A DNA stretch of 64,000 nt from Cirrosporium novae-zelandiae (lineage: Eukaryota): contig JAPETS010000003.1 in NCBI GenBank assembly GCA_026023565.1, forward strand, positions 806,001-870,000, read 5' to 3'. The notes under the pieces were generated by a model. The model did no database searches. It was not told the DNA's origin and saw only the letters and a list, made by a program, of their open reading frames with translations. This document shows positions 5,177 to 61,695 of the stretch, piece after piece (position 1 is the first letter of the stretch; the number at the start of each line of letters is the position of its first letter). The translations under genes and the position numbers were made by a program.

Positions 5177-8100
5177 TCAGCTTTTCTTATCTGACTGCAT
5201 GGATACAGTTCGCTTTGAGAGTGACGATTTCGGTCTAGGAGTCGGTTCGTCGTCCTCCTTCATTTCGATATTTGATGGCGGTCTTGGTGTGGTATCCATA
5301 TCAATATCAGCTAGCTTCTCGCCAAGTTCCTTGCGTAACATTTCAGGGGGAGTCATCTTTGATTTTGCGCTTGTTTCTGGTGGAATTGTTGACGGGGGTG
5401 TTGATAATTCCTTTGACGGATGATCCTCTTCATACCCCGAAATAACACTTCCATGACTATTCGTTCTCATCATTTCGGTGCCAAGTCTTGATGATCCACG
5501 AGATACTTTAACTTGAGGACTACGAGTACGTACTTGGATGTCTCCAAGTTCATCATCTTCGTCGTCCCCAGATTCAGCACATTCATGTCGTTGTTGTTCA
5601 ATAGAGACTCGTTTGGCTTGAATGGACTCTCTGGATCTAGCCCTCCTCGGAGTTTTTGGACCTACAACCGGAGGTGCTGAAGTGGTTTGAAGCAATTTGG
5701 GCATAACTGGCTGAAACATTGGTTTCACTTCCCCTGTTGTTTCGTCAGTGATTCCCAGCACATTGTTGCTCCATTCATCCGCCCCCTGTCTACTAATGAT
5801 GACTGGCACATCCTCCCCTTTAACATTTTCCATTTCACCAAAGAAGCTCGATCCCAAGGAGTCTTCGTGGCTTGATTCATGATATGAGCCTCCCCCTACC
5901 AAGGCTGGGAAGCTTGAAGTAGTAGAGCTAGGACTATCATCCAATCGAAGTGCCTGTTGTCTGAGCGAAGAGTGAGGGATAGGCAATGGTTGAGATGAGG
6001 CAATTGCATTTCCAGCAGCTGATGGTGGCTTCCACATGCAAAGTTGACTGAGAGCATCAGTCAATTTCGTCAAGGTTGGCGGCTTCTCCAATAACATGTC
6101 GAAATGGTGATTTTCAGGAAGTTCTTTCAAATAACCAGTAACAGCTACTAGAGGAGTTTGGGAATTGGCATTCTTTGTGTCTCGGATCATCCTTGCAACA
6201 TCTGCGCCGTTGACTTGTGGAAGTTTGTATTCCATCAAGATAACGTCAAACTGAATATCACTCATTGCGTACCGCATAGCTTCAGATCCATTGGCAGCAG
6301 TGATGGTACGGCATCGTAATTTCTCAAGAAGCCGCTCCATAACCATCCTTGATACGGGGTGATCCTCACAAATTAGGACATCCAGCGGCCGGAAAGCTGG
6401 ACCATCAAGTAAAGTAATTTGGGACATCCGCCGTGAGCTTTGTCTACGTCTTTGTACCCTTAGAAGGGCCTTGGCTCGAGGATCTTCATTGTCGGAAGAT
6501 GATGGAGAAATATCAAAAATCTGACTCCTGCGCTTATAATGACCGGGTACGAACTGTTCCTTTAACTGTTCTCCTTCCTGGGAACTAACAGTCTGTGACC
6601 TCGCGCGCGGAGTTGGGTTACTTGTTTGTCGCTGAGGGACTGGTCCCTTTTCTCCAGGCATCCCCGCCAAACGGCTTGGTTTCATGGGTGATGCTGCATT
6701 TGAGGCAACTTTGAAGCTACCAGCCTGCCTAGGAATATCCATACTCCCAGCCTGTAAGCCGCTACTAGATTGATGCGATAGAGTCGAAGATGCACTGGAT
6801 GTCTTCCTCCGTTCGTGATTGCCCGTGGAGAATGAGACGAGAAGAGGCGAGGAAGGCTGGGACATACGATTTGGAGAAGAATTCGCCTGACTTAAATTAG
6901 ATGGTGAAGCTGGACGGACATGGCCTTTATTGGTAGATAAGGTGCGCTTAAGCGGTCCAGGGAGCATTGGACTAGATTCAAGAGAGGGTGTTGGAGAATT
7001 GGGGCCAGTTGAAGAGGTCGATGGGATGGTCTTTGATTGAGCTAACATAGCTTCTGCTCGTAGCTTCTGGATTACATCTTTGTTGGCCTTTTCAAGAACT
7101 GGGAGGTTTTTATACGTAAAGTTACCAAAATCATCAGCCATGACAGGTTCACTTAACCTCCGACTACGCCCGTCTCGAACATGGGCTGGAATATGAAGTG
7201 GCATGAGCCCTCTTCGCATTGAATTGACATTAACTTGGGTACGGACACGAGAGAGCGCATCATGAGGTCGATCTGGATAATCTGCCCCAGGAGTGATATT
7301 CTGAGGGGACATCTGATCCTCGAGTTCTTCGGCAAACGATTGTAAGGTTGCGCCTCGAGCATCAAAATATTCTGTGTCCTCCGGATTTTCGAGATTTGGT
7401 ACAAATTGAGCTTCATCTTCCCGAAGAGTCTCCCAGTTGATATCGTTAAACCAAGGATGGGAACGAACTTCTTCACCCCCACTAGAGAACTTGTCACCTT
7501 CGTTAGCCCCAAGCCGAGCATGCGGATCAACAGTCATCAATTTATTTATTAGGTCTTTGGCTTCGGGAGAAACCGGACAATCTTCATCCGAAGGCCAGTC
7601 AATGTTTCGATTCAAGATATTCTCAAATACCTGGTCGGGGGTATCGGCATGGAACGGGGGATATCCATAGAGGAATTCAAAAAGAATACAACCAAGCGAC
7701 CACCAATCACTGGTTTCATCCTGGCCATCTCCCTTGATGGTTTCCGGAGCTAGATAATCTGGAGTCCCAACAAAGCGACGTTTGTTATCATCTGGGTCGA
7801 AAAGAGCCATAGGTGGAATCATATTTGGTTGGGTTGGTATGTTAGTGATGCTTATATGACTAGTTGTAGGCTGAAGGGTGTAAGGATCTGGAGAATTGCT
7901 TCCTTCACTGTGACACTCCTCTTCAATAGAAAGTCCTTTTTGAGCCCCAGAGAAACTATTGGATTCTGACATGGAGAGATTGCGGAATAAAGCATGAAGC
8001 TGGTCACTACCACCGCTGTCACTCCGATAATCTGAGGCTTTTCGCGAGTGTTCGCGGGTTATACTATCATCACGGTTTAAATTGAAGTATGATGGTTGTA

Positions 8101-34840: not shown

Positions 34841-34890
34841 TACAACAACTCAACAAGGAATCAATCCTCTTCTCTCTTCTAGCCTCTTAC
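34841..34890 (+). repeat. 50-bp dispersed repeat, also at 57906-57955
   Basis: tacaacaactcaacaaggaatcaatcctcttctctcttctagcctcttac; 46/50 identical to the second copy, all differences C/T. Confidence 0.9.
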
Positions 34891-35002
34891 CGTGTCAGTA
34901 TATAGTAAGCTGATGCCTTACTCCACCTAATCCTCGGCAGCCTTTCTCCCAAAGTTAACACTCATGGTCCTTATCCTCCAGGACAACATCAGGCTATTGA
35001 CG

Positions 35003-37468
35003 ATGGAGCATCTTCCACTTTAAGATAATGGGTTTAAACTTCTAGTGCCATACTATGGCCTAGAATATGATGGCTTAGACTTTCTTACATATCCGCAACG
35101 CCAGAATTGGATCAAGGAAGCCATACTTTCAGGGAATTGGAACGCAGCCGGGAAGTCTCAGTTTGAAGTGAAGGCTTTTTTGTAGAGTTGGCTGTATTTT
35201 GGTTTGTTGGAGAGCATGTTCGGTATGACTAGCCATTTATTTCTTTTAATATGGAATAGGTAGCTCTGCTATCGATTTGGTGATTAACTTGTGTTATTTA
35301 TAAGGTGATGTCCCCATTCAATTATGGAGCTCTGATTTCCCACTCTACTCTCTTGTAGGCATAAAAGTCTCTGCCACAGATTTCATCCGAGATGAAAACG
35401 GCCACGGATACATTACTACAGCGTTGCTTGAAACATACTAAAACAACTGGGAAAGGTCAACCTGGAAAAAGGGTTCCAACCGCACCGAGATTTTGAGACT
35501 ACATGCTTTAAAGACGAATTCATATATTGAAGAGCGCAGTCGTATTGTGCACCAATTGCTACTCATACGCAACAAAACTACCGCTGCATCAGATCAACCG
35601 TCTTATTTTTTGAATGAGGATTTACTCCTTTCTCTTCAGCTATTAGGTCTGGCCTTGACAGAGAAGAGATGAGATATTTACATGCCCGGTATTAAGTTGT
35701 CAACAGAGGAGGGATATATAAATCACTATTATGACTGGGGCACTAGTGAACGAACGGAGAGGTATATGCTTCATGCAGGATGGTGCCCGAGTGCTATCGC
35801 AAAGGTTCGAAAAGAGTTGGATTGTCTCTTGTATGCCGCTTCGCTTCGGTCGCCCTCAACTGAAAAAGACCATAGCAGATGCACCAAAAGATCTTGCGTA
35901 GCAAACCAGATCAATAAAGAGATTTACCAGATTCGTCATGTCTCTAATAACTGTCAATGTGTATCGTGGAAACCTGATGAAGAAAGGATTCTGGAGATCA
36001 TCAAGGATGGCGGAGTACCTCTCGTCTGTTTTCCAGTCGATTGGCCTGCAGATAGCGAATCTTTAGTGCTTGAAGTCATACGGTACCAACCAGGACAACA
36101 GTATGTGGCTATCAGTCATGTATGGGCAGATGGACTTGGAAACCCATATGAAAATGCTCTTCCGGCTTTTCAAATTTGGAATCTCTGGAGGACCATTTGT
36201 AGTATGTATACAACAGTTTTTGATAATTTTGGAATTAAGTACATGTGGGTTAAGCCCTTCCTCAGGCCGCCGTTTTTATGCCCCGATAAAGTCGTTCCAT
36301 TTTGGATAGACACTCTGTGTGTTCCAGTTATCCCTTCTCTACAAAATTATAGAAGAGAAGCCATCAGACGAATGCGACAAACATACATCCAGGCTGATAA
36401 AGTCCTCATGCTAGATGACGATCTTTCTCATGTCTCTCGAGCTCTTCGAATGTCCAAAGAAGCCCGCCTCGAATTTAGTTTTCGTATGTACCTTTCTGGA
36501 TGGTATTCACGATTGTGGACTCTACAAGAAGGTAAACTCGCACGGGACGCCTGGTTTCGGATCAAGGATGCCACACTTCCCGCCAAGGTTTTATATTCCA
36601 ATTTGGCGCTTGACAAGAATGGATCTATGCATCGCATATGAGAGAATGCATCCAGTGCGCTCTCGACGATGATTGAGAACAGCTGGGTGCCTGACGAAAA
36701 ACTTCCTACCAGCGAGCAGGACATCGGAAAGGTGATTTCCAGCCTAGAGTCTCGCAACACTAGCAATAAAGCAGACCAGATAACCTGCCTCTCCACACTG
36801 CTGGATCTTGATCCCATGCGCTTCATGAACATTACAGACGATGCGCAAAGGATGCGTGAATTCCTCGTATCTCTCCCGTTAATACCACCTGCTATTATCT
36901 TCATGGGAAGCCCTAGGCTCGAATATCAGGGATTTCGCTGGGCACCTTCCTCATTTCTGTGTAGACCAGTCCCAAGCTACAGACTTTCTCAGCTTATTGT
37001 TCTATCTCGCCATCCATATCCTAATCGGCCTGCAGGTTCCATCACTTCCAAAGGCTTAAAAATAATGTTTCCCGGGATTCGCCTGCTTTCGGGTATGACA
37101 GCACTACCTCCAAGTGGAGAATTGATCATAGAAGAGCATCCATCGCCGCAACATATATGGTATGCGAAATTCAACAACGAAACCGAGGAGATGTCTTGGA
37201 ACAATGTCAAAGGCGAAGCAAATGATTCTAGACAGCTGGCGATGATTATTGGGAGCTTCGGACCCAACTATCGTGAACCAATCAATGCTGTATTGGTGAT
37301 ATTGAACTGCGACGTGGAAGGGGGATCAAGAGTGCTACGACTGCAAGTTGATTTGCCAGTTCATCTTGACTGAGTTATCGGATCCAACAGCAGGGGATAT
37401 ATTAAACACCAATGGCGCAAGACTCGCCGGTGAGGATCATCACGACCCAGATGTGGTGTGTTGATTAG
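35003..37468 (+). pseudogene. HET-domain (heterokaryon incompatibility-type) protein pseudogene
   Basis: MEHLPL*...YDGLDFLTYP...FL*SWLYFGLL N-terminus; YVAISHVWADGLGN, FWIDTLCVP, WYSRLWTLQEG HET motifs; QMWCVD* end. In-frame stops at 35021, 35183, 35439 and 36639, and a frameshift near the end. Confidence 0.85.
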
Positions 37469-40430
37469 ATTTATGAGCCACGCCATAGGAGATGCATCTA
37501 GTGCTTGTAGGAAGTTGACTCCGACCCTTTATGGGACGAGATACGTGAACTCTGCCATAAGCAAGATAGATTATCAGAGATAGACGGAAGGTAATATTAT
37601 GAAGCCAAATAATATAAAACAACACAATGGCAAATCAAGGGTCTATTATCCCGCAGTATAACAACCCATACACACACGCATACATATAGAGAGAGAAGAG
37701 AAAATTTCAAGAATGAATAAGATAAAATAATTTCTCACCACTCAACGAAAAACACCACCAAATACCCACCTAACCAAAAAACCCCATCATGATCCAATAT
37801 TTCCAATAATACCAAGCTCTTGGTCTTGGATCCAAGACATTAAAACCCCCACAGATACAGAAAACACTAATAACCAATCCTCAAAGAATCCGAGAAATAA
37901 ACCCCTTAAACATCAACATAAAAAGATGTGGAAACAGATAGAAGTAGCAGGATCAAGGATATATATATATGCATCCATATATCAAACAAGCAAAAACTGC
38001 ATTCTTGTAGCAATTTGAAAAGAAGAGAAAAAAAAATAGGCTTGAAGGAGGTAGTTAATCAACCAATCTATCATCTAGGTGTCTGAGATCACAGTTTCCC
38101 AAAATCACATAACTTTCTATCGCCTGTAATTACGAAACGTTCGAACCCCTTTTTGGGCTAGTTGGTTGGTCTATCTTTATTGTGGCTTGCTAGGATAGTT
38201 GTCACCTCTAAACGAGCTCAAATTGAAAGTAATAATAATGATGATGATGAGATGCTAGAACGGAAAGGGTTCTAATGTTTTATTATGATTTGGTCTTTAT
38301 GGCTGCTGATTGTAAGAATTAAGGGTGGTGGTGGTGGTGGATAATTAATTAAAGACTAATTCTAGATCAATATATTCATATTATCTTATCTTATCTTATC
38401 TACCCCCTCCACTATTTAGCCAGCCTAATCTCCTACATAATTAACAAACCCTCATTTGAGATACCCTCCAATCCAAACCTAAAAGTCCATCCGTTTAGTC
38501 ATTATAGATGATTTTATAAGTGTTAGGTAGCAACAAAAAATGAATTTTGAGGTATAAGGGCCCAAGGGGGGCTGCTGTTGGTTTTCATTTTCGTTAGATT
38601 GGATTTTGCTTTTTCTCAAATGTGCAGTTGTCGCATGCGTCGTGTTTCCTGTTGAGGTTAGATACGTGGGCAGCGGCTATTACTCGAGTGCTGCGATATG
38701 GCCGTTATGCATGCGCATGTGTCCGCCTCCTGTGCATGAATGTGATGATACTGTAACCGAAACCTATAGTCTAATCGTAGGGAATGGTAACTAGGTGATG
38801 AGGAGAGTCCCATACCACCTATGTCCTTCGCGAAGGGCGTAAGGCAAAGCGAAGCAATGAATCAACGACCTGTTAAAATTCGAGAAGGTCTATCTATCTA
38901 CTCAGAGTTGGCTTCTCGCTAAGAAATCGGTGTCCCTAGGCCTCACCATTTGGCGCCCAAGATTAATTGCCCAATTGATTTTTGGTAAAGAGAACAACTC
39001 TGGGTATGTTACACTAGGTTGCTGTCGCTAAGGTCGCCATATTCAATTCCAGAGTAACTATTGTGTGCATAGGCCGTTATATACCTTTGTCAGTTACAAT
39101 AATCCAGGAATTGATAGGTAAGTATAGAGGAGATAAATCCGTGTCTATTAGGATCTAGTATACCAAGCATACGCTGGATTTGATATACCGATGAACATAA
39201 TATATTTAATTTTTACCCGTAATTCAATTGTAAATCCATAGGGAAAAAGTATAACTTCAAGCGAAGGTTTTTTTAATACCCTAACATGCCAAGAATGCTA
39301 AGATATGTATACCATAGACTATGAGTTATTTTCCTATGTACTGTATAGGGAATACACGTATGAATTATTAGTATACGGTATTTGCCCAACGCTATTAACC
39401 TTAGCCATAAGGTATAAATATCAAAAAATTAAAACTCATTCGTAGTAACAACTAATATCATGTACCCTGAAATTGGGTAACGGTTAGAAACTAGTTATCT
39501 AAGAATTTCAACTTTTTGTGGTGAAGGTGGTGGTCCAGGGTTTATACCCTAACAAGGTCAGTCACTCCCAGCTCAAACACCTGGTGCCAAGGGCTAATTT
39601 TTGGTGTCATTCGAACTTTCGGTTGCTAGCCAACTCTAGGAACATGGGCGTTAGTAGAAGTGCTAGATGTTAGAACTAAAAAGGGGGAGTCGTCTTTGAG
39701 GGACACGCCTGAAATTGCTGTTGGCTTGTATGACAGATTGCGGTGTGCTTTGAAATTATTAAAGTTTGGGCAGAGTCAAGCGCCTTTGCTTTCCCTTTTC
39801 ACCTCTGGGCTGTAGGGCGAGCTGGGGCCGACAAGTTAATACTTGACAGGGGGAGGAAGGAAAAAGTTGTGATCTATAGAGTTGTTGGGTGAAGTGGAAG
39901 CCAAGTCAGACGCTTAGAAACTTGAGTCCGCGAGTGATTGGATGATATTGAAAATTGAATCTAGGGTTTAAGAATGAACTATTTCTGCTTCACTGATTCA
40001 TATGTTGGATGTGAATAGTTCAGGGGTAAAAAGAAAGATCTATTGAATAAACAAGCTTTCTGAACATCGTAAAAATCAAGTAACTTGAGACGGATACTAG
40101 CAATCGTGCTAGATTTGTTATAGCTCCACATGTGCCTATATAGTATGGGGCCAGCATATTAGACATAAAAATATATCTCGCACGAACATATTCATGTATG
40201 CATACACCATCCAATCCCGTTTCGCTTTCCTCTGAAGTATGTCTGTAGTCCACGTAGAAGGGCGATAGACCTGGAATTAAATAGACTGTGCATTTCAAGG
40301 AAGCATGAAAAAGCAAAATTAATATAACCAAACATTCAGTTGAAGAAAACTTGCAAGCTGGATAGGAAAAAAGGGACTATCACAAATAATAAGACCTTGT
40401 CCTGATTGCTCTTGCCGGTATTGACAACTT

Positions 40431-42069
40431 TTATACCGAGGATTGGTAGATACGAGAGAAATTAATGAAATTTTCCCTTTCTGCATCCTTAGTGTACTTC
40501 CCTGCATGCTTATTCTTAAGGTGTCTTGCGAAACAACCGCGCCTCGTATATTCCTTCTCTGACTTATTACAACCCGGTACGCCACATTGGAAAAGGCTAC
40601 CTGTTGTATACCGCTCCCACATTGAGCTATCAGTTTCTAGCCTAGCCCGACGATGATCTACAAGCCTTTGAGCACATTCGTGGATGTTTCTTTGAACATC
40701 CGATTTTGCAAGTTCTAGACGTGTCTTCTCCCGTATATAATCCAAAGTACTCTGACCTTGGCCGCGATCATCTTTCCATTCGTCAAGAGAAACAACTCCC
40801 ATTCCATCGCGGACGTTAAATCGACGATAAAATATCTTTGTAATTTGAGTTGTTACGAGTGCTGAGTCATGGCCTTGGTTTGAACTTGTTGTCATTCTCT
40901 TCATGAATTCAGACAGCATCTTTATATTTTGAAAACCTAGAACTCTTTTACGGTGAGAGATCCTGAGCTTGTCGTGATTTCCGGTTCCTATACCAATAAG
41001 GATCTCGATCATGTCATAGCATGGATCTCCGTGTGTGCCGCCAATCATTGCTGCGACATCATTACAGGCCACTGAGCTTGGATTATTGGTGCCAAATCCG
41101 CCGTCCAAGAAAAGCATACCACGGAGCTCTTTGGGTTCGAAATAAAAAGGAGCTGCCGCTGTGGCTGCAGCAGCATCGGCAATTTTTACATCATGCCCTT
41201 CTCCAGCGTTGTAGATCGTATTGTTATCTTCGTAATTTCGTTTCGGGGGTATTTTATATGTCCGAAAGAGATACGGCATAAAATTACCGTCTTTTTCCCG
41301 ACAAGCTATGACAGCTCTGGCTGTGTTAGGTTTCGCGCGGAGTAGGGATATTGAAAATGGCTTACGATTTGCACAAATCCTTGGGTGCCTCCATCCTTGC
41401 AACAGCGCGGAGTTCTTTGTTTGGCGTAGATCTGCGCCTCTGGATAACTTGCTCGACACAGCTTTCGAGTCTTTTTAAGTCATATTTTGCCCTTCCAATT
41501 ATCCAACGCCCGTATACAAACCGTGAGGCACCAAATACTTCTCCACCGAAGTCTTCAAATGCTCCAAGTGTCTCGTCGACAGACATTCGCAGCCGTCCAA
41601 GCATGAGACTAATTAAACTGAGGCAGTCTTGTTAGTTGTAGTTCATATCAGCTAGAAGGACCGGGTTACCCTCCAGTGCTTGTCCCAAAGATATAATCGA
41701 AGTAGTGGCAGGGCAAATATCGATTTAATTCGTTTTCTCTGCCATTTTCTTGGGGCTCTTGAAAAGTCATTACTTCTTGAGGTGTCCGCTCAGGTGTATG
41801 TGAAAAACAATAGCTTGAATTATGGGGAACTTCCTGTACTCGCTCCAATTCCATTACCTTTTCCATAAGGTCTTTGAGTATTAGAAGACTTGAGTAGCCT
41901 TTAATACCTCCCCCATCTAAAGATAAACGTGAACCAGTTTGCATTTAAAGTGTGAGAAATAGGGCTTACCAAAGCTTAAGATGGCTGGCCTCCTCCAAGG
42001 GTTTCGAGATAGAGAGACGTCAGAATCCTGCCATTTCCCAGGCGTACCAGGGGTACTTGGTTCACCCAT
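40431..42069 (-). CDS. Patatin-like phospholipase, copy 1 (~494 aa; exons 42069-41970, 41916-41670, 41617-41366, 41316-40431), C-terminal C2H2-like finger
   Basis: DGGGIKG, FDYIFGTSTGG (GxSxG), FLDGGFGTNNP (catalytic Asp), CGVPGC...RHLKNKH. The spliced length is a multiple of 3 with no internal stop. Confidence 0.9.
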
Positions 42070-43977
42070 GGCCTTAGTGATGATGCTCAATTATCTTGGG
42101 TGTTTAATTTACCGAATAAGCAAGAACGACACAGTGATCCTAGATTTCTATATGGCTATAATACAGCATACTTAATATATCCTTATAGCTATTGGAAGAG
42201 CCCACCCATTGTTGTAAGATCGGAAAGGAGCTGGAAGCAACTCAGCAAGGCTGTAGTTCACATGCATACCCTAAATTCTTGACCATTGAGATTGACAGCG
42301 GAAAAGATCGACATTGTAGACTGGATGTCCGTTTTTGTTCACGACATCAGTATTCTGTGTGGGGCTCCAACTCCTAGGCTGAGCAATATCAAGGCCGCAT
42401 GAACTTGATATCAACCATGTCTTCCCAATCTGCATAGCTCCAAGGCACGCAAGAATTTCTTATAGGCTTGAGAAGCGAAAAATGTTGGGAAGCCCTCGAT
42501 GTATATTTAGGAGCCCAGAAGGAAGAGGCTACCATAGAATACCAGTCTGAATATTTATGTCACTTAAACATCATTGCATTTGAGAGAATACCTCCAAGAG
42601 GCCATAGCCTTAGGCACGTAAGAACTACAGTTGCCCTAAAAAAAGGACTTTAATCATGGTATCAACAGAAAGGAGGAAATGGCGCATAAAAAGTTGGCAT
42701 GGTTTAGCCTGCTAACTATTTAATGTCTCACATGATTGGATCCTCAGGTTATGGTTGTCACACCAATTTACCGTGCTGCTTCGATATTGAATTGAAACTT
42801 ATCCGTCTTTTATTGATTACAACTTGATACGGTCACTAAGACCATATACTAGGGTTCATGCCCTAATCTAGCGTGTGCGCCACACTTGATAGATAGAGGC
42901 CTCTACTCAGGAAGTAAGTCACCATATCCACACCAGTTATATACCCCTAGATTTGTGCTTTAATGAGCCCAAGCCCTAAGTGTTGTAACGCAAATAGTTT
43001 GGTATTAAAATTGGTACCATTAGTTTCCAAATAATAAATTAATAATTAGCTGAATAGTTCGTCAAAATAAGTAGAATAGTTCATAGTCCTACAACCATTT
43101 GATAAGATAGGATAGCGCGGATAATATTACCAAGTATGTAATTATATGATGACGCCATGTCATCCTGAGTGCTTGTAGAACAGGGGGGCTGACACACACT
43201 ACTAATGACCCTTTGAATAAATGACAGCGTGATAAGGCTAGGTGACTACTAGGATATTCGCTAGTGTCAACCCCGACACCTTTACGGTAGCACGTGGGTA
43301 GATAGTTTTAATTTTCGTTGTCACTAGGAATAGCACTGTCCAATTGAATTGATGAAGAAACGAGTTAACAAACAAGGGTCATAACACAAAGGAGGCGATC
43401 GCCGGGCATCGTATCTGTAGAGGGCGGGAGGGATCATTCGCGATGAAGGGTTCTGCAATAGTACAGCGTTACGCAAGCCCTCCTGGACATGAACGACCCC
43501 ACACCTATGGAGAAAATAGGATTCTGGCTTAGCATGCCCTCTACATCGTGCATAGTAGGTTGTCAACTAGATCACACAATAGAACTTAGTTCTATAGATA
43601 AGCATTAGCAAGATTTTATCACTTTTGTAATTTAAGTAGTAGGGTGTGGTGAGCTGAAAATTCTAGGTTAGAATGAATCTGATACAGAAAGCCATACTAT
43701 GCACTAGCATTGTATAATCCATAAACCAGAGAGGGCGTTAAATGACATCGTTTTAGCTGGACTGCCTTGCCCCTCGAGTGATTATTCCGCTGCCTTTGGC
43801 TATTAAACTTCGGGGTAACGGAACTGTTTTCTCTTATCACACGCATGATTGACATAGCGAGCAGGTTTAAAATCCTTGATGTAGACGCCCAAGTATACCA
43901 CCCCAGAATCAGCTTAATCTTTCATCTTTCAATCTAGCAAGCCAAGAAACCAGCCTTCCTAAAGATTAGCATCAACA

Positions 43978-44367
43978 ATGTCGAATAAACCAAGAAGAAG
44001 TTCTCGGGGGAGCATTGTCTTCGATCCGGCACACCAAATAGTGAGAAAAGGCGATTTTGAGGAAGGTATGTGACCTTTGGAGCCTATATCACTGTTATAC
44101 TTACTTACATATGTAGCTGCAAACTACATGAAAGTTGATATTCCAACTAGATGGGGCGACAAGTTCGATATTTACGTCGACCGTTGGTCAGAGGGTGGCC
44201 CAAAGTTCATCATGGCTAGTGATCCAACTGGCATAGGCGGCCAAGATTACCTAGCAACTATCAATCTCCATAATATTCATAAATGGAAACGCGTGACGAA
44301 GCAAGTGACAACGATCGCTGTGATAGGAGAGATACCACGAATCACTAGCCAGAAAGGTTCAACTTGA
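43978..44367 (+). CDS. Small unknown protein, copy 1 (112 aa; exons 43978-44065, 44117-44367)
   Basis: caacaATG context, 51-nt gtatgt...tag intron, and a clear paralog at 50412-50832 with the same intron position and phase. Confidence 0.8.
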
Positions 44368-47096: not shown

Positions 47097-48619
47097 CTAT
47101 TCCCCATTCCATTCATGCCGGCATTTATCAACGAATTCGTCAAATTCCTTATCATTCCCCATTGTATGATGGTGGGAGACATGTCTTCTGAAAGAAGTGC
47201 GACTGGTATATTCCTTCTCCCATTTAGAGCATCCTGGGATATCGCAATAGAACATCCCGCATCTTGTATAGCGCTCCCACCGTGAACTGTCAACATGTAT
47301 CCTAGCTCGACGAAGACTTACGAGCGCTTCGGCACATTCATCGAGCATAGCTCTAACATCCGTGTTATTGAGTTCAATGATTGTTTGAGTTTCAATATAT
47401 TCTAGGGTGGACGGACTCCCGTTGCGACGCTCATTCCATTGATCTAGGGACACACACCCCATTCCTTGTTGCACGTTAAATCGGTAATAAGGTACGCCAT
47501 GTGAACTTAAAATTTTGCGGGTTCCTTTGTCATCTGAGGATGAAACCATTCTCTTCATGAACGTAGTAAGTTTCCACATATTCAAAATGGGTAGCCAGCT
47601 TTCAGAGGGAGAGTCCTGGACTAAATCGCGTTTCCCTGTTCCAATACTAATGAAGAGTCTGATCTGTCTATAGGGGTGACCGCCAGCTCGGCCGCCTATC
47701 ATGGCTGCAACGTCGTCACAAGCTACCCCGCCTGGGTTGTTATTGCCAAATCCTCCATCTATAAAAAATGTCCCCTGAACCATTTTTGGCGTGAAATAAA
47801 ATGGAGCAGCTGCTGTGGCTGCAGCGGCTTCTGAAATCCTTACATCGTATCCTTCTCCGGGGTTAAGTACTAGTATGGAGTTATTATGGTGTTTGTGTCT
47901 TCGAGGCTGTACGTATGTGCGGAAGAGATAAGGCTTATACTGGCCATCTTTTTGTCGGCAGGCGACTAGAACTCTAAATATGTCAGTCCCCATAATTAAT
48001 CGTGATATTTGAAATAGCTTACGACTTGCATAAATCTCGAGGCGCTTGCATTCTAATAGGGGAATTAAGCTCCCTATCTGACTCCGGAAGGTAATTCTTT
48101 GCGACAGTTTCAACGCATTTTTCAAGTTTCTTTTGGCTATATTTGGCCCGTCCAGTTATGAATTGACCATGTACAATTCGTGGTGTACCAAAAACCTCTC
48201 CGCCTAGCTCCCGGAATTGGATAAGGCATTGATCAACAGACATCCGTAAGCGTCCAAGCATAAGACTGATCAAGCTGGAAGAGCATTGTCAGTGCCATCA
48301 CAAACATAGGGGAGGGGTTGTTTTACCCCCCAGTACTTGTTCCGAAGATATAATCAAAATAATGACAGGGCATATACTGGTTTACATCAACTTCCTGATC
48401 GAAAGGACAATAACTTGAGTTATGAGTATCTCCATAGTTTCCACTTCGTTCTAGGGCATTTATTCTCTCCATAAGACTCCTCAGTATGAGAAGGCTTGAG
48501 TAACCCTTGATCCCACCTCCATCTAAAGACACATCAGCCCGGTTCCACCAACAGATATATGTAAGCAGCTTACCAAAACATAAGACGACTGGTGTTTCCC
48601 AGGGATTTTGCTCTGTCAT
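47097..48619 (-). CDS. Patatin-like phospholipase, copy 2 (~456 aa; exons 48619-48574, 48522-48327, 48274-48023, 47973-47097), C-terminal C2H2-like finger
   Basis: DGGGIKG, FDYIFGTSTGG, FIDGGFGNNNP, CDIPGC...RHVSHHH. The three introns are at the same positions as in copy 1. Confidence 0.9.
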
Positions 48620-50411
48620 AGTATTAGGTGCTCCGTGATATTGGAAATATCATTTTATGAAATAGAGAAAATACTAGTCTGTGATCTAAGGCAATTATAA
48701 CACAGCTTGTATAATATATATGTTCACTACTATCAGCAGAAATATATCCGGTTTCGAGGCTTGTCCTGAGCTGAAGAAATTTGCCATAAGGCTGCAACTC
48801 CGAAGCATTTTCAAATTTTCAACTATCGACATGAATAACAGCTAGGTTCGGGATCTTTTATGCAGCGGTATCTCCTCATCACAGCGGGAATATGGTGGCT
48901 GGGGGTTTTAGCTCCATGATTGAGCAATGGTAAAACTCGTGCTACCCATATTTTAATATGAATATCCCTGAGATGCACCCTTGAATTTATAGGCTTGCAG
49001 TATGGCAGACGCGAGAGGTTTCAATACAACATTTAGATTTGAAGGAGTCCATGCATGAACCATTCGTCCACTCATCCTTATCAGGTATTTTCTTATCTAT
49101 GCCATCAACCTTTCCCGTTCAAGTAGATGAATTGAATAAAGACATAGATTTGGTAGGCGAGTGGCGTAGATATATAGGTAAGTAGCCATAGTAGCGTGAG
49201 TAACGAAGTAATCCAATATATATATGTTCGTTGCTTAGATCCTCCGTAAGCCTAGTTACTACTTGAGTAGTGTAAGGAATCGATAAGACCTACTAGAAAA
49301 CTTTCAAATAATAATTTATTATACGAAGTATACCCTATCTCATAACAGTCCCGCTCCTAGGTCCCCGATGACAGGTAACCACTCAGCCTGCTCTGTAGTC
49401 TTACGCTGAAGAAGAATTTAATGGACAACAACACTCATCCATTTTTTAATTATTCAAGATGGCCCATATTTTGAAAAGAAAGCTGGTCTGCAAGCTAAGG
49501 AAAGTACAACATAAGCAGTAAATTGCTATTGAAGAGTTTCTTTTAGAAGGAAGCTGCAATTATTATCTACTAGACGGGTCACCATTGGCGCACGCTAGCA
49601 GGGTGTTATGTAAGGATTATAATAGGTCAGATAACCATTTTCAGGTAGAGTCAGGCATCAAGCTCTTTGATGAATAGTATTGAGCCTTAAACTCTTATCA
49701 TTGGATCAATCAACCTTTCACCATTACATTGGTGCATGAGCAGTCGTGTGGTACGGATCCTTTGTGTTACCCTAGGCGAGGCAACGAAAATTGCTCAAAA
49801 TGTATTCGAGGATAATTATATGAGCTAGACTAACCCCGCAAGGCTGTAACAAGGCCCTTCCCCATTCTAGGGTTCATTACCGAACAGAACAAGACTTGGT
49901 GTTACCCTCATCTTTTAAGAGTCAGAAACTAATAGCACTTTCAGTTGTACTATTGTGAAAGAGTTGTAGGTTTGAGCATTTAGATAGGGCTGTGGGGGGT
50001 TCTCCGCAGCGCCCCCGCTCTCGCATACCAAGAGTTTTCCGGATAGGGTTAGTCCCCGCATTCGGTGCCCTAGGCAGCCAAAAACATGTAACTCTTTCAT
50101 ACTATGACTTCATTTTCCTAGCAAGACGATGAATAGGAATCATCTGCCATCTGCGCAGTTCCGATATGTTTTGTTCTCCAATAGCTGAAAACCTAATGAA
50201 AAAAATGGCATCCTGACATGAATATTGTGGCGGCCTATTATCCCAGCCGCATACGTTTTCGGAGCTTCGTGTTCCATATTAGCGACGGCCTTATGATTAG
50301 ATCAATACATTCCTCTATCGAGATAGATATAGGAAACTGTTACCCCTTGTCGGTTCCGACCAGTTCGTCATTCTATCTAAATATTTGATATTCTAGCCAC
50401 TTATTCCAACA

Positions 50412-50832
50412 ATGCCCACCACCTCTCAAGAAAACAACGAGGAGCGCATCATATTTGATCTATCACAGCAAACGGTGAAGAAAGACCGTCTTAAACAGGG
50501 TGGGTTACGTTATTGGCATCTTGTCGAAACTATACTCACCTTACATAGACGCAACATACACGCGAGCCGAAATTCCAACACGATGGGGTAACATATTCGA
50601 CGTATATGTTGACCGCTGGTCCGACGAGGGCCCAAAAATTACCATGGCCCGAAGCCCAGGATATCTAAGTGGTCAATATTATCTGGCCACAATAAACCTT
50701 CATGGTCTCGACAAATGGAAACGAATTACTAAGAAAGTGAAGTCTATCGATATTATGGGGGATATCCCAACGATCCCAAAGTCCAACATCGAGGAACAAG
50801 AAGCTCAACCGGCTTATAATAGGCCAACCTAA
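50412..50832 (+). CDS. Small unknown protein, copy 2 (123 aa; exons 50412-50499, 50549-50832)
   Basis: caacaATG context, 49-nt intron, 41/66 identical residues to copy 1 over the core IPTRWG...GDIP. Confidence 0.8.
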
Positions 50833-55439: not shown

Positions 55440-56060
55440 ATGTGCTCGAAGTTAGAGAAAATGTCTCCAAGGCAGAAGCAGATGACTACTGATGCCATCA
55501 CCACTCAAGAGGTTTACCATAACCTGAAGCCAGTCACCAAGATTTCAATCCATCTTCTCGGATTGCTCCTTGGCTTACTCATTCTCTCATCGTTCCTGGA
55601 GCCTCGTTGCGCATTTCTGCTTGGAGTATCCGTCGTATCCACCCTCGTGCTCGCCTTGTTTCTAGGTGGATATGTGCAAATATCAACCACTGGTTCATCT
55701 GAATTGGTACCTGCTCCCACGTTCAAGTCTGCAGACGCACTAGAGCCAAATGGTGATGCACTTTCCAACATATCCGACTCGTTGTTAATCGATAGATATC
55801 TTGGGCAAGCGATACTGCAGTATTCTCCTATAGGCAGAGCTATCAAACACAGCTTGGGGTTGTCAGGCCTGGCTCGGGACCTTGAAATGGAGGGAAAGCG
55901 GGCCACTGGCTCGGTCTTCGATGATGATGACTACGAACGTCCCCAAGCAGTGGACGAGTCCTCCGATAAAACCGTCTCGTCCCAAGATCATTCGAACCCT
56001 CATATGCCCTCTCTTTCCCCACGCCCTAAGATTAGCAAGCCTGTTGATTCCCCTCTTTGA
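55440..56060 (+). CDS. Hypothetical membrane protein, ~200 aa, two TM-like segments
   Basis: ORF with two hydrophobic stretches; 3' structure uncertain. Confidence 0.45.
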   Translation: MCSKLEKMSPRQKQMTTDAITTQEVYHNLKPVTKISIHLLGLLLGLLILSSFLEPRCAFLLGVSVVSTLVLALFLGGYVQISTTGSSELVPAPTFKSADALEPNGDALSNISDSLLIDRYLGQAILQYSPIGRAIKHSLGLSGLARDLEMEGKRATGSVFDDDDYERPQAVDESSDKTVSSQDHSNPHMPSLSPRPKISKPVDSPL

Positions 56061-56724
56061 AGGAATCTTCCTCGATTATGTAGGGATAATAAGAACCTTT
56101 CAATTTTAGCTAAGGTACAGATGCTAACTCGTGTCAGTCATGCCAAGTGCCAATAATCGAAAGTGATATGTAGTCCCTGCTGCGGACATCCTGAAAGGAA
56201 TGCTACAAGAGGACGTATGGTCAAATTATGAACACAGGAAACAAGATGAGATAACAAGGCAGTCAGTTTAGATTACGAGTTCTCGATAGGGAGTGCTAGA
56301 ATAACAGCACTGCTGAAGAGAAAACAATCTACCCTGTAACCTACCTATCTATAGACCTCTATATCTAGGAATGAAACTATCAGAATTCTTCTTCAAAGTG
56401 AAGGCCTTTATTATTTAACATACCTATCTTCATCGGCAAGTAGTGTTTCGTTTTGAAGTCCTTTCTTTGTAGACCCTTGCTTTTTTCCAAAACGATTTAA
56501 ATAAGGCAGTCTAACATCAATACCTTATTTCAGCACTGAGTGGGTTTATCTCGATATCTTTTCGCCGGCAATTGTACCTATGAAAAGATAGAGGGTAAAG
56601 TTATCGTGAAGGGAAGATATATTGAAGCAAAAGAGTAGGATATATCTAGAGATAAAATTTGTCACGCTCAAAGTTACAGCTACATCATGTGACCGAGCAA
56701 TTAGCCTATGCGCTCGCTTGCCTA

Positions 56725-56996
56725 GCACCCTGGTCCCAAAAAATAAAGAGGACTCATAAATTCCTTCCTCTAAGCTAGCCTACGTGCCTACCCAGCACTA
56801 CGCCCACCCTCCAAAAAAAAGATCCTAGGGAGGCCTTCAGACAAAATCAATTTTTAATTTCAATAACAATTCAATTTGAAGGCCTCCCCAAAATCCTAGA
56901 ATACATAAAAATTGATTTTGTTTAAAGACCTCCCCAAGAAAAATAATAATTAAAAAAAAAGGAATCTGAGTGCCGTTTATTTTGGGACCCGCGTGC
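56725..56996. mobile_element. Foldback/MITE-like element with nested inverted repeats
   Basis: Outer IR gcaccctggtcccaaaaaataaag..attcc / ggaat..tttattttgggacccgcgtgc; inner IR 56825-56854 / 56907-56938. Confidence 0.55.
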
Positions 56997-57904
56997 CGGT
57001 GTAATTATCGATCCCTTAAAACGAACGCCCTCACTCAAAACTGCCACCATAGTCTACATTGTTAGGGTTATAAACCGGTCACGTGTCACCCACTATTTAG
57101 CCAGTGATTCCCACAGATAGAATCCACAAGTTTGTCGCATCTATCTGCTCCAATAGTCCCTTCAATAAAGAAAATGAATGCCATAGGAAGAAGAAGGATA
57201 TATCAATTGGGCTGTCTTTATTAAAGCAAGTACTTAATACACTGGCTGCATCATTAGCCAAATCCAGTGCTTCCCTATCACATCAGCTCATCAACTCCTT
57301 GCCTAGTCGACATGATAATCGGAGTCAGTCTGATCCTTAGTGCCTTGATCTTCCTAAGAGTCTGGCTCTGGGGTCATTCTTTTTTAAAAATCAACTCTTT
57401 CCCTTTTCCACAGTCCAAGGTGCATTATTTCCGCACCACTGGATCATGCCAGGAGATGTTATCTCAGCAGACTCTTGCTGCTCGCGCAGCTCCAAATAAA
57501 CGACTTGTAAAAGTTTTTAATATCGATAATGCATTCACGACAACGGATGCTACATATAAGCGATAGTTTGTTGAAGAGGTCCATAAAATTTTGAAGACAA
57601 ATAATACTGAATAGAAGAAATGGGCGGCGACAGCAGCTGAAACGTTTGAACTTACATTGGAGGAGTCACCAAAGTTCCTGTTTAAGAATAATACGAGGAT
57701 TAGTATGGTACACTTTGTACAAGGGGTTGTCTTCTCGACAGTCTTGTCCAAATTCTTTCTATTGCCGCAGAACACGAGATATCCAATTTGCGCTATCGAT
57801 TCTATAAGTTCGTGGTGGGCTGCTGATATGATTAATCCTTTGTGGATCGAGTCAAAGGTTGGCAAAATCAAATGGGGAAATTTTTCTTACATCGATTGTT
57901 GACC

Positions 57905-59430
57905 ATACAACAACTCAATAAGGAATCAATCCTCTTTTCTCCTCTAGCCTCCTACTTGTTTCTGCACCGATATTTCCCCGCCTATGCTTTGTACATATAT
58001 TTTGCACAACAAGAGTTCTATTTTTTGGTGAGGCCCTATACAAAAATTGGGGTGCATGCTTCGGTCCGCGATTCTATCTAGAGAAAAATTTTTATACACT
58101 GGTTTGTCTTGTTTGTTCGCGCACGGGTCCCCTTGCGGGGTATACCTACAGCTGTTTGGGCATCACGTGACTTAGCGCCACAATTCTGTCTATAAAAGCA
58201 GCAACTTCTGCCTAGTCAGTATTTAGAAATTACATCAACTTTCCCCACTTTTTCCCACCTCATAGTAACCAACCACTTCTACAACAACTTGTTTATTAAA
58301 AACTATTATCTTTCTTTCACATCTTACTATCATAATTTTAATCAAAGCTTACTTCACATCCTTCCTTTCTATCCCATTATCATAATCTTAATCATGTCTG
58401 ATAAATCTCCCGAAAATTCTGTCGAAACTGCTTCTAAGCCTTCTTCAAAACCTCTGGTGTTTTCACCTGCCTTTAGGGGAAGCCATACGTTCTCGGTTGA
58501 AAATCGACTGGCAACACTTCGAGAAGCGCTTGGCCAAGACAAATGGGTACACCAACGCCCAAATATCTCTAAAGCGATAGAGATGTATGAAAACGGCGAG
58601 CTACCACTGCCAAATTGGCAGAAAATTTGGTTCGCAAATGGTAGGGTTATTGATGGCCTACCGGATACGGCACCCGAAGGTGTCTATTTCTGGGTTGAGG
58701 TTTGTTTTTTTTTTTTTTTTTTATATAATACTAATTTAATATTTAGGGCGTCGGATGTCAGTTTCCGCAAATCTCTGCAACTCCTCCAGTAAGTCTGTTT
58801 GATAGTACTAATTACCGTGAATCTTTAGTGACTAAATAAATTCAGTAGGAGATACAGGGGCAATTCGCCCAGTCATCCAGATGTGCAATATATCCCGGTA
58901 CTAGTATGCATGTAGTAAGTTTTTAATTTTTTTTTGAAAATGAGCTTAATAAGATTTTCGCAAGACTCTGCCTGGCACCACTGTTTGGAGGAAGCCCCGA
59001 TATCATATCTAACATTCTAATCGCCAATGATACGGGATGAAATACACAAGTAGTGTTCGAGACGGATTTGGCAGCGGTGGGGATTTTTCCTATGTATAGC
59101 GGCTGGATGCTACCTTTCGAGATTGATACAGCTAATGGATCTGTATGGCGTGATCGAATTCTAGTAGAGATACAAATAGTGACAGCGACTGGGGATACTC
59201 TTACACCGTGGTTTTTCGAAGAGTGTGCTGTTATACCAACAGTTCCAGGTACTGTTCAGGGGCGTTTGTCAGGATTTAAAATGCGTAACTACCTTTATTT
59301 TGCAACTGCACCTGGAAATGGTTCTTTGTATGTTTCTCAAAAAAAGAACGGAATCGTTAGCCAACTACTACCTGTTTTATAAGATTTAGGTAGTTGCAAA
59401 TAGTCATCAAGTGAGAATAGACGAAATTAA
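57905..59430. mobile_element. 1.5-kb insertion flanked by TTGACC direct repeats, no transposase visible
   Basis: TTGACC at 57899-57904 and 59431-59436. P450 homology stops and resumes at these points in the same reading frame. Confidence 0.7.
58394..59382 (+). pseudogene. Intron-containing cargo gene with a C-terminal retropepsin-like aspartic protease fold; in-frame TGA just after DTG
   Basis: NILIANDTG*NTQVVFETDL...IDTANGSV...RLSG resembles the DTG, flap and (L)G motifs of retropepsins. Upstream exons have GT-AG introns; the middle exon structure is uncertain. Confidence 0.55.
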
Positions 59431-60859
59431 TTGACCCTTTCATTCACCAATCACTTCCTCCCATCTCCATAACAATGCTATCCCAAATACGTTCAAAAGC
59501 TCTCTGAACCAGATTCCACCCGCATACGAAACACTATGGCGAATTGTCCTGCGGCTTGTGATCGAAGTCCTCTACCACAACCATGCGCACACAGACTTAT
59601 GGCGCAAGACACTTGTAGCATTTGCTCAAGCTCCAACACTCACTCACCTCGAATCTCATAGCCTTGTTCCCGGAATGACCGTCCGTGCTATCGTCAGCGA
59701 AGATCTGCGTCTATATCCCCCAACGCGACGAATCTACCGCCAGCCGCAACCGTTACATAGTACTACTGATGCGGAAAAAAAGCCATTGATGCTGGCCGCA
59801 GATATCGAGCACCTTCACCGCGACCCAGAAATATGGGGACCCGATGCGTTGACATTCAACCCTGAACGATAGCTTAGAGATGCCGGCGATCTAGACGAGG
59901 CGAGGAAAAGGCAGAGAGATTTCAAGGCATTTATGCTGTTTGGGCACGGGTCGTTTGCTTGTCCAGCGAGGCAGGAGGTCGGCCCTATGATGATTGGGAT
60001 TCTGGTAGCGGTGCTGGTGGAGAAGCTATGGGAGAAGGGGATTACAATCGAGGCGCTTGATCATGCGAGTTCGGTCGTTGGAAGGGAACCACTAAGCCTG
60101 GAGAGGGATAGCTACAGGGGACTTTATATTCAGATACCTTAGTCGGGGGGCTTTTTACAAAGTTAGAGGTTAATCCTAAGGCTTAGGGTTTCGAAAGGGA
60201 TTTCCTAGAGTGTAATTGTAGAATAATTCAGAGCTGCTTTTTATCATCGATATCAATGAACACGGCTATTTTCACACTAACCCTGATTAATTTCCTTACA
60301 AGATAAAATGAACAGAGCTTCGAATTTTTGAGGCCAGACGATAATTTTTGAAGAGCCTTCTTAACCCATTAGCATTATGTGGAGTATTTTAATTGTAAGG
60401 GCTCACTGACATTTATGCCGTGGGTGATCGTTTTCCTGCTCATTGCATATTGACTTGGGTGGACGTGTAGGCTGGTCAGGATGAATGTGCTATTTTTTGA
60501 ATATGCATCATGTTATATGGCTACATGCGACAGGATTTCAGTTTTCCGAGCATCCTCGTACTTTGGCTTCACCCGATTGCGTGAGTTCAGGGTGGCGACT
60601 CTCACCGGCTAGAACGGTAAGAAAATGGCCAAACCGTCATAGATATTCGTCCGGTATGTTATACCGGACGAAAAGATCAGAAAGAATGCGGTCTTATATA
60701 AAAGCATCACCCTCACATTGACGGCATCATATGATATAGAACTCTCCTGCTCTCCTGCACCTTGTCGTTAGGCAAATGTTAGAATATTTTAAATCCTCGT
60801 CTCTCATTTCTTAGCAATGAAGTGGTGATGGGAATCAATTGTAAAAGATATAGAATCAA

Positions 60860-61695
60860 TTATTTCCTTTTCTGGTGCTTTCCCTTTTTACTCGAATTTA
60901 AATCGCGTCCCTTGGCCTCACCCGAACGAAGTGCAGCCCGCCGTCTTAGATACTGTTGTACAATGTTCTGGACACTTCCCATATCGTGCTCCGGTTTCCT
61001 GTTCAGAGAGCATTAGATCAATCCAAAATCATCCACAGAGTAAATAAAGGTTTAAAGGAATGCGGAAGGGTTCATACCTCATATAATATAACCTCGCCCT
61101 TCTTGCCCTTTTCTCTCTCTTCTGCGCCACTTCGATCCCCACGACATTGGGGCTGTAGATCTTAACCCACATCTCGACACCAACCCTCGTTAATTGATTG
61201 CGCAAAAGGATCGCGGTATCCGCTCCTCGTCGTCTAATGTTCAAGCATACACCGGCAAATGGATCGCCGGACCGAAAGGAAACCAATAGTACATCCCCGA
61301 CTTTTGCACCTTCTTTGTTCATCCTATTAAATAGTCTAGTACGGATGCCGGTTGGGTCGAGGAGAGCGATCTCGAAATCATTGACCTGTTTCACCGGGTC
61401 TTTGCATACCTTGCGAGTGGATGGGGGGGGCGAGTAGACCTTGAGTGGTTTTTTGGCTGTATTATTTGTCCATCAGCACGCTAATTCCTCAAGAATATTT
61501 ATATATAGGACTGAACCCGCCAAAAGGCATACCAGTAAAAGGTGCTCCCATCAATTGCGGAGGATCAGAAACTCTTCGTGCGCCAGCATTCTGCAGCGAC
61601 GCGAATTCCCTGACATTCAACTTCTGTTGCCTCAAGTGCCTCAATGTTGCCTTCCAGCAGCCTAAAGGCCGCATTGTCCGATTCAATGATGCCAT
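60860..61695 (-). CDS. IMG1: Mitochondrial ribosomal protein bL19m (Img1), 3 exons (61695-61533, 61456-61078, 60998-60860)
   Basis: VGDVLLV, FAGVCLNIRRRG, ILLRNQLTRVGVEMWVKIYSP, RARRARLYYMR L19 signature; transit peptide. Confidence 0.9.

Follow-up and report, generated by a model that had tools for sequence, protein, structure and literature searches.

A gene-sized insertion carrying a retropepsin-like gene in a cytochrome P450 pseudogene of Cirrosporium novae-zelandiae

In a 64-kb stretch of contig JAPETS010000003.1 of Cirrosporium novae-zelandiae (the window), a fungal cytochrome P450 gene on the plus strand (57312-60142) is interrupted by approximately 1.5 kb of unrelated DNA that carries a gene of its own. 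The hexamer TTGACC stands on both sides of the interruption, at 57899-57904 and at 59431-59436 (plus strand), and the insert between the two copies is 1526 bp long (57905-59430, plus strand), with an alternative right limit at 59490. A preliminary description of the sequence had read the interruption as a transposase-free insertion flanked by 6-bp direct repeats, and had proposed a miniature, non-autonomous cargo element mobilized in trans. We find that the insertion is real, and that it is plausibly the relic of a small mobilized unit.

The interrupted P450 gene and its insert

When 1532 bp were removed from the locus the two P450 halves shared one reading frame, and a profile built from 120 longer homologues (234 longer relatives were found at E ≤ 0.001) aligned with the rejoined sequence over positions 25-424 as a single piece, bearing out the proposal that the halves had been split and rejoin in frame. 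Translated with stops written as X, the 5' half (57312-57904, plus strand) aligned with profile positions 22-194 and the 3' half (59437-60142, plus strand) with positions 224-424, and the latter also matched Pfam PF00067 (E = 3.2e-07). The rejoined site, with its single TTGACC, reads ...ATCGATTG-TTGACC-CTTTCATT...; the insert has ATACAAC as its first and AATTAA as its last bases, its right end, if bounded by TTGACC, being ...GAAATTAA.

TTGACC is a common word, with 19 copies on the plus strand of the window, and just the two copies at the insert occur within 56001-61000. By the profile, recognizable P450 homology stops near 57865 and resumes near 59492, and the linker between these points is unconserved in the family. 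When the residues beside TTGACC were shuffled, the observed profile score was reached by 131 of 200 shuffles on the left and by 118 of 200 on the right, and since the adjoining residues thus score like shuffled ones, the exact joint at TTGACC is backed by linker length alone. Joined there, the linker is 43 amino acids (aa) long; in the 104 of 120 homologues in which both flanking motifs were found it measures 33-76 aa in 103 and 8 aa in one, with a median of 40. We put at about 0.01-0.03 the probability that a 6-mer would match by chance at a place compatible in frame and length. Around TTGACC no similarity above chance extended beyond the 6 bp, as a longer imperfect duplication would.

The left edge of the insert can be located independently of the P450 sequence. 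Its first 50 bp (segment a, 57906-57955, plus strand) are identical at 46 of 50 positions to 34841-34890 on the same strand, between an SRP54 gene and a HET-domain gene, all four differences being transitions and the longest exact match 17 bases. When the window was compared with itself, no short repeat other than this pair emerged, the other three rows reflecting an old duplication of a patatin-like gene. The left edge is real, since this repeated segment begins a single base past the left TTGACC. The insert also differs from its surroundings in composition, with a TpA/ApT ratio of 0.97-1.02 compared with 0.65-0.67 in the P450 halves and 0.78 in the window.

The only public sequencing run found to contain the stretch (run X1) is possibly the source of the window; no RNA run containing it was listed. 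In its assembly two separately built contigs (records 6 and 7) span both junctions with 0 differences. The extra contig depth over the bin of segment a fits one further genomic copy, and a second segment of about 80 bp (segment b, approximately 58063-58143, plus strand, with coordinates taken from depth only) likewise has one further genomic copy, for depth rises across bins 58010-58231 and another contig shows a one-base deletion at 58127. No Rfam model matched within the insert, a tRNA scan returned 0 genes, and in a scan for tandem repeats the only one was intron poly-T.

The P450 gene is, to judge from its reading frame, a pseudogene, because it contains four in-frame stops (TAG at 57564-57566, TAG at 57612-57614, TGA at 57900-57902 and TAG at 59870-59872), despite a recognizable PERW region and haem-binding motif. 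At the first two TAG codons the homologues show Q/E and W, and the TAG at 59870-59872 replaces the W of the PERW motif itself; the haem-binding FGHGSFACPA is present in the 3' half, which closes with its terminal stop TAG at 60140-60142. The TGA lies inside the left TTGACC, and the rejoined frame also reads TGA there. As both identical copies of TTGACC hold an in-frame TGA, the target probably already carried this stop at the time of insertion, and the P450 gene was probably dead before it was interrupted. Three of the four stops are of the CpA-to-TpA type, and we considered repeat-induced point mutation as their cause; the P450 indices for this process are normal, yet, so the strong form of the claim was rejected.

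Several features lie outside the interrupted gene. A short repeat of about 90-100 bp (57060-57160), some 150 bp upstream of the P450 start, has many genomic copies, with a summed contig depth of about 3200-6600 compared with about 352 for single-copy sequence and several contigs showing 7-17 differences; it has no other copy in the window self-comparison. Further upstream, at 56809-56939, about 120 bp of palindromic sequence look like a hairpin or a miniature inverted-repeat transposable element (MITE), and the Rfam matches there were only sub-threshold plant and animal microRNA models, which are chance matches to a hairpin. The old duplication mentioned above is segmental (40522-44337 and 47182-50769, 64-66% identity), with a patatin-like phospholipase gene in each copy.

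The carried gene encodes a retropepsin-like protein

The gene within the insert (58394-59382, plus strand) has four exons (58394-58699, 58747-58788, 58849-58914 and 58954-59382), runs from an ATG at 58394 to a TAA at 59380-59382, and is preceded by 489 bp of upstream sequence within the insert, with TATAAAAG at 58192-58199. The three introns bear out the view that this is an intron-containing gene and not a retrocopy. Its spliced frame is open apart from a single TGA (59038-59040, plus strand), which is X38 of the translated sequence P0003. Residues 7-150 of P0003 align with residues 122-265 of an intact homologue, P0126, in which D150, T151, G152 and S153 are nearly invariant across 87 aligned family members. 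Because the TGA stands at the Ser of this conserved D-T-G-S motif, the copy of the gene in the window is probably dead.

The C-terminal part of the protein has 263 relatives at E ≤ 0.001 among cluster representatives. Every named relative is an ascomycete protein annotated as "hypothetical". The family is widespread in Ascomycota; several members per genome are seen in Lipomyces and in some Onygenales, with Trichophyton, Blastomyces and Emmonsiellopsis among the genera named, and in two named genomes identical family proteins carry two accessions each. The family had no Pfam match at E ≤ 0.1. In the AlphaFold2 model of P0126 (predicted local distance difference test score, pLDDT, 81.6) an N-terminal helical hairpin is followed by a disordered linker and a C-terminal barrel. 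A Foldseek search with the barrel returned 101 Protein Data Bank matches at E ≤ 0.001, headed by the proteases of human immunodeficiency virus 1 (HIV-1), xenotropic murine leukaemia virus-related virus (XMRV), feline immunodeficiency virus (FIV) and Rous sarcoma virus (RSV), with probability 1.00 and a template modelling (TM) score of about 0.6 on the target. By its predicted structure, then, the C-terminal domain of the family has the retropepsin fold.

The domain is also predicted to form a homodimer: the pairing of two C-terminal domains scored 0.76, with 0.00 for the best control. The mark for pairing was reached by 21 of 30 solved one-chain pairs compared with 0 of 23 single chains, and among eukaryotes by 17 of 29 compared with 0 of 30. 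The runs agreed in at least 86% of contacts, with a partner pLDDT of at least 91, and the predicted interface comprises the DTGS loop (residues 148-154), a conserved LYFATAPGN stretch and both chain ends. The pass may reflect likeness to solved retropepsin dimers. Taken with the motif, the modelled fold makes the family a putative aspartic protease.

The public gene model of the locus, P0124, shares the first three exons of this gene and then, by way of part of the last exon and avoiding the TGA, splices into the P450 3' half. Because it skips the TGA and fuses two unrelated families, the exons of the protease gene and the 3' half of the P450, P0124 is a chimeric gene model (window 58394-60142), and it is flagged here as such. 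A protein search with its residues 1-230, of low sensitivity, matched P0124 itself alone.

Relatives of the carried gene form units in other fungi

A scan of metagenome contigs gave 40 loci with relatives of the gene; it was made with the smaller of two alignments (A3), the other (A2) being too diverse for a locus scan. In these loci the relatives occur as units of 1.2-1.5 kb that are dispersed, tandem or inverted, and thus show unit-like behaviour in other fungi. The clearest case is family B (loci L002, L004, L010, L016 and L029), in which three left and five right ends are visible, all of them sharp and identical, with unrelated flanks. The family B unit is about 1.29 kb long, starting TGTAAAGTTGC... 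and ending ...GTGCTGTAAAG(T), with TGTAAAG(T) at both ends. Two such units, 81% alike, lie head to tail in L016 with one TGTAAAGT in common, and a copy in L029 (1822-1898) has kept its outer parts with about 460 bp less than the copy in L010. Another internally deleted copy, in L034 (near 619), likewise keeps its outer parts and has about 428 bp less than L013.

Family C, from one sample (L005, L008 with two inverted copies, L009, L011 and L014), comprises at least six copies at 80-97% identity, and its inverted pair differs by 102 transitions compared with 29 transversions, a transition-rich decay. Some family C copies have, in their 5' coding part, a minisatellite of varying copy number, its unit being AAGGAAATGACGCCC-like and about 15 bp long (L008, 2400-2700; L014, 1000-1250).

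The neighbours of the relatives are ordinary genes, for example COPA, Sec23, RIO1 and transporters. We scanned 89 of the 176 open reading frames (ORFs) of at least 150 aa in the loci (E ≤ 1e-4), setting aside the relatives themselves and ORFs that overlapped a chosen longer one. Among viral contigs there were 25 pattern matches and 0 relatives. A HET-domain gene stands directly beside a relative in L011 (1581-3515), another adjoins a 108-bp relic of the 3' end of a relative in L039 (10144-12276, the same locus as L040, 3908-5863), and in the window (34841-37373) a HET-domain gene has the second copy of segment a immediately upstream. As HET genes are numerous in these fungi, this neighbourhood may be due to chance. 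A match of the right end of the insert at 38512-38530, which would have made the HET gene of the window a second unit, was rejected, its score of 33 lying below the random tops of 40-46 and hence not above background.

Origin of the insert and comparison with known elements

Given a real insertion whose gene belongs to a family that forms units elsewhere, the account that we favour, tentatively and at somewhat short of even confidence, is that the insert is a dead, integrated copy of a gene-sized unit mobilized by an enzyme encoded elsewhere. Such a unit would comprise a promoter, a short tail and, between them, four exons encoding a retropepsin-like homodimeric aspartic protease, 1.5-1.6 kb in all, and would have landed in the variable linker of a short, probably already dead P450. 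The most likely route would be conservative recombination in which a short stretch of the unit met the identical six bases, TTGACC, in the target; one TTGACC would then remain on either side, as has been proposed for Cryptons, and the enzyme would have come from elsewhere. We infer that the insert moved as the units of its relatives would, that TTGACC was the crossover, and what enzyme was involved.

We favour this account because joining at TTGACC restores one P450 frame and a linker of normal length, because the only short repeat in the window begins within one base of the left edge, because the dinucleotide make-up of the insert is unlike that of the P450 and the window, and because two separate contigs cross both junctions without difference. 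It is favoured also because family B units have sharp identical ends in unrelated flanks with TGTAAAG(T) at both, because family C has several copies in one sample, an inverted pair included, because identical proteins carry two accessions each in two genomes, and because short terminal direct repeats without terminal inverted repeats (TIRs) are the described anatomy of Cryptons (PMC3212892; PMC13465315). The carried gene is probably not arbitrary cargo, since the same gene family fills every unit though the ends are unrelated.

A number of observations weigh against mobilization. The copy of segment a at 34841-34890 is not preceded by TTGACC, no inverted arms around TTGACC are visible on reading the target or the joined ends, and in run X1 the interior of the insert has no second copy at a likeness of 80% or above. 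The 120 listed relatives include no paralogue from the same organism, and the non-coding ends of the insert showed no similarity to the 40 metagenome loci. Among the relatives, the ends of family C are ragged, and a further pair (L006 and L012) has about 1.2-1.3 kb in common and no clear flanking repeat. No mobile-element family was found in the insert or in the 27 window ORFs scanned, and no transposase, integrase, reverse transcriptase or recombinase in the 89 ORFs beside the relatives. The preliminary description had envisaged longer copies with a tyrosine recombinase or a DDE transposase; no longer copies of the insert were found, and neither enzyme in the insert, the 27 window ORFs or the 89 ORFs on the relatives' side.

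To these observations must be added the right edge, which bears on the main rival explanation: that a gene-sized piece of DNA was captured once, through end joining at a chromosome break, and was never mobile. We hold this to be less likely than mobilization and nevertheless take it seriously. The last part of the insert belongs to a 103-bp segment (segment c, 59388-59490, plus strand) that has one further copy on another contig (positions 120-229 of a 21214-bp contig, record 8 of run X1). The two copies are identical over 36 bp on each side, their differences (five transitions and 7 extra bases; 8 other letters and 7 gap letters in the contig record) being confined to 59424-59454, and the second copy runs unbroken through the right TTGACC and stops where P450 homology resumes, within about 2-12 bp of the restart. 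Because the second copy of segment c crosses the right TTGACC, the right edge is ambiguous (59430 or 59490): either that copy is a later duplicate of the junction, or the insert truly ends at 59490, a reading that fits a chance occurrence of TTGACC there. The 6-bp direct repeats of the preliminary description are thus present at both places, and it is as the right boundary of the insert that the second is in doubt.

If the insert was captured, it would extend from 57905 or 57906 to 59490, about 54 bp of P450 linker would have been lost, and the right TTGACC would be a chance match or a microhomology. Segments a, b and c would then all lie inside the insert, a and c at its ends, and a 107-bp tail past the stop codon would suit a complete gene better than one of 47 bp. 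The absence of P450 signal in the linker residues, the single-copy insert and the lack of an enzyme in the scanned ORFs are consistent with capture as well. What speaks for the joint at TTGACC is the perfect in-frame 6-mer one base from an independently located left edge, with a normal linker restored, a coincidence to which we assigned the low chance given above. Joined at 59490 instead, the linker would be 25 aa long, shorter than in 103 of the 104 homologues with both motifs, and the profile score falls from 354.2 to 346.2 bits. Nor would capture explain the fixed ends of relatives in other fungi. A dinucleotide test for assigning 59437-59490 gave log-likelihood ratios of +1.37 (order 1) and -0.59 (order 2), with overlapping calibration distributions and hence no power. 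Single-copy ends had been named beforehand as evidence against an element; the left 50 bp and the right 59388-59490 each have one more copy, and it is the interior that is single-copy.

It is also conceivable, if improbable, that the unit is a new type of selfish element, autonomous in that its own retropepsin-like gene would drive its spread by mobility, drive or addiction. The presence of the same gene family in every unit, with ends unrelated between families and nothing else inside, is what such an element would show, and multi-copy, tandem, inverted and internally deleted forms do occur, with no other mobility gene in the 89 flanking ORFs. However, a protease has, to our knowledge, no way of cutting and joining DNA, most long loci hold one copy amid ordinary genes, fixed ends are found in just one of three families, and the family could be a fast-duplicating host gene family. 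A very small place must be left for the absence of any insertion, the protease gene being nested in a long P450 intron or the locus otherwise rearranged. P0124 does splice insert exons to the P450 3' half, but it is the chimeric model described above, skipping a TGA to join two unrelated families; on reading the sequence the edges offer no GT...AG pair that could serve, GTTGAC being a poor donor, the sole candidate intron in the rejoined sequence is 70 nt long and breaks the frame, and the P450 profile aligns without any other intron. Finally, an assembly artefact is hardly credible even though the public protein of the locus is recorded as coming from a metagenome-assembled genome, since both P450 halves flank the insert in the same orientation and frame, Logan contigs of run X1, though built from the same reads, agree with the window across both junctions without a single difference, and the longest exact match of segment a, at 17 bases, is too short to mislead an assembler.

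Mobilization of a gene-sized unit in trans, the account that we prefer, is supported in part. The anatomy, the foreign DNA, the repeated left end and the sharp relative units of 1.2-1.5 kb with 7-8 bp terminal direct repeats agree with the miniature, non-autonomous element first proposed; the scanned ORFs supplied no enzyme, the interior is single-copy, and the notion of cargo probably does not suit the gene. A wider proposal, about which we are doubtful, is that the retropepsin-like gene with 100-500 bp on each side is an undescribed small selfish or mobile unit of Ascomycota, with fixed ends, terminal direct repeats of 6-8 bp, a dimeric aspartic protease as its sole gene product and both tandem and dispersed copies, and that the window holds a dead copy lodged in a P450. 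We regard the locus as a relic, a dead gene inside a dead gene, and the family of protease gene units as the lead worth following. Small gene-carrying insertions without transposase, TIRs or long terminal repeats (LTRs) are normally dismissed as noise. Were the units to move, fungi would have their first described non-autonomous Crypton-like elements, or else the units would represent an element type of their own, and a family without assigned function would gain a biological context; if the insert is merely a capture during break repair, it is an ordinary relic in a dead gene.

Most known classes of element can be set aside from the ends and content of the insert. The preliminary description had seen no TIR, LTR or poly(A) tail, and this held: the left end scored 14 against the reverse complement of the right end (shuffle mean 15.2) and 13 against the right end itself (shuffle mean 16.2), there are no TG...CA ends, and there is no A-run at the 3' end. 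A TIR DNA transposon or MITE was accordingly rejected for want of terminal inverted repeats, an LTR retrotransposon or solo LTR because the ends are unrelated to each other, and a retrocopy or an insertion mediated by a long interspersed nuclear element in view of the three introns, the 489 bp of upstream sequence with TATAAAAG and the missing A-run. Pack-MULEs are marked by long TIRs and duplications of 9-11 bp, Helitron captures by 5'-TC...CTRR-3' ends, a 3' hairpin and insertion between A and T. The present insert resembles them as a small element carrying host-like gene sequence with introns, and differs in having no TIR and the ends ATACAAC...AATTAA, which fit neither 5'-TC nor CTRR-3', so that a Helitron was rejected too.

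In filler DNA, or fragment capture at double-strand breaks, microhomology at the junction is usual and a perfect flanking duplication is normally not left. The insert is like filler DNA in being single-copy, gene-sized and without transposon hallmarks, whereas capture gives no fixed ends in many copies, unlike what the relatives show. With the retropepsins (peptidase family A2; HIV, RSV, XMRV, FIV and Ddi1-type) the C-terminal domain of the family has in common its modelled fold, the D-T-G-S motif and the predicted homodimer; it differs in that its gene stands alone, is of cellular type, contains introns and encodes a helical domain at the N-terminus, and the window copy has a stop in the motif. 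Neither gag, reverse transcriptase nor integrase was found in the 89 ORFs scanned near the relatives. The literature, so far as its text was available, yielded nothing relevant on a retropepsin-like gene in a fungal transposable element, the sole retropepsin-like mention in PMC8454179 concerning an ordinary retrotransposon.

Starships, elements of tens to hundreds of kb that have a DUF3435 "captain" recombinase at their start (PMC10104507; PMC13465315), had been suggested as a parallel. An ascomycete host, carried genes and short flanking direct repeats are common to both, but an insert of 1.5 kb with one gene and no DUF3435 domain is not otherwise Starship-like, and that part of the comparison has to be given up.

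The comparison with Cryptons fared better, and for them the view that short direct repeats without TIRs are part of the anatomy was confirmed (PMC3212892). Cryptons have neither TIR nor LTR, their terminal direct repeats of 4-6 bp are taken as recombination substrates common with the target and not as true target duplications, and some families have fixed terminal words (PMC3212892; PMC13465315). Animals are known to have non-autonomous Cryptons, and a C48 peptidase is carried by some of the Cryptons of oomycetes. The insert differs from them in that no tyrosine recombinase is encoded in it, in the 27 window ORFs or in the 89 ORFs beside the relatives, and in being far smaller, with a retropepsin-like gene as its only gene and no further copies in run X1. 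Several copies with the same ends, which the insert lacks, are found in family B. The likeness to Cryptons lies in the fungal host and in short terminal direct repeats without TIR or LTR, seen both in the TGTAAAG(T) units and, with its right end ambiguous, in the TTGACC-flanked insert, and among the metagenome relatives it extends to the fixed terminal word of family B and to tandem units with one repeat in common.

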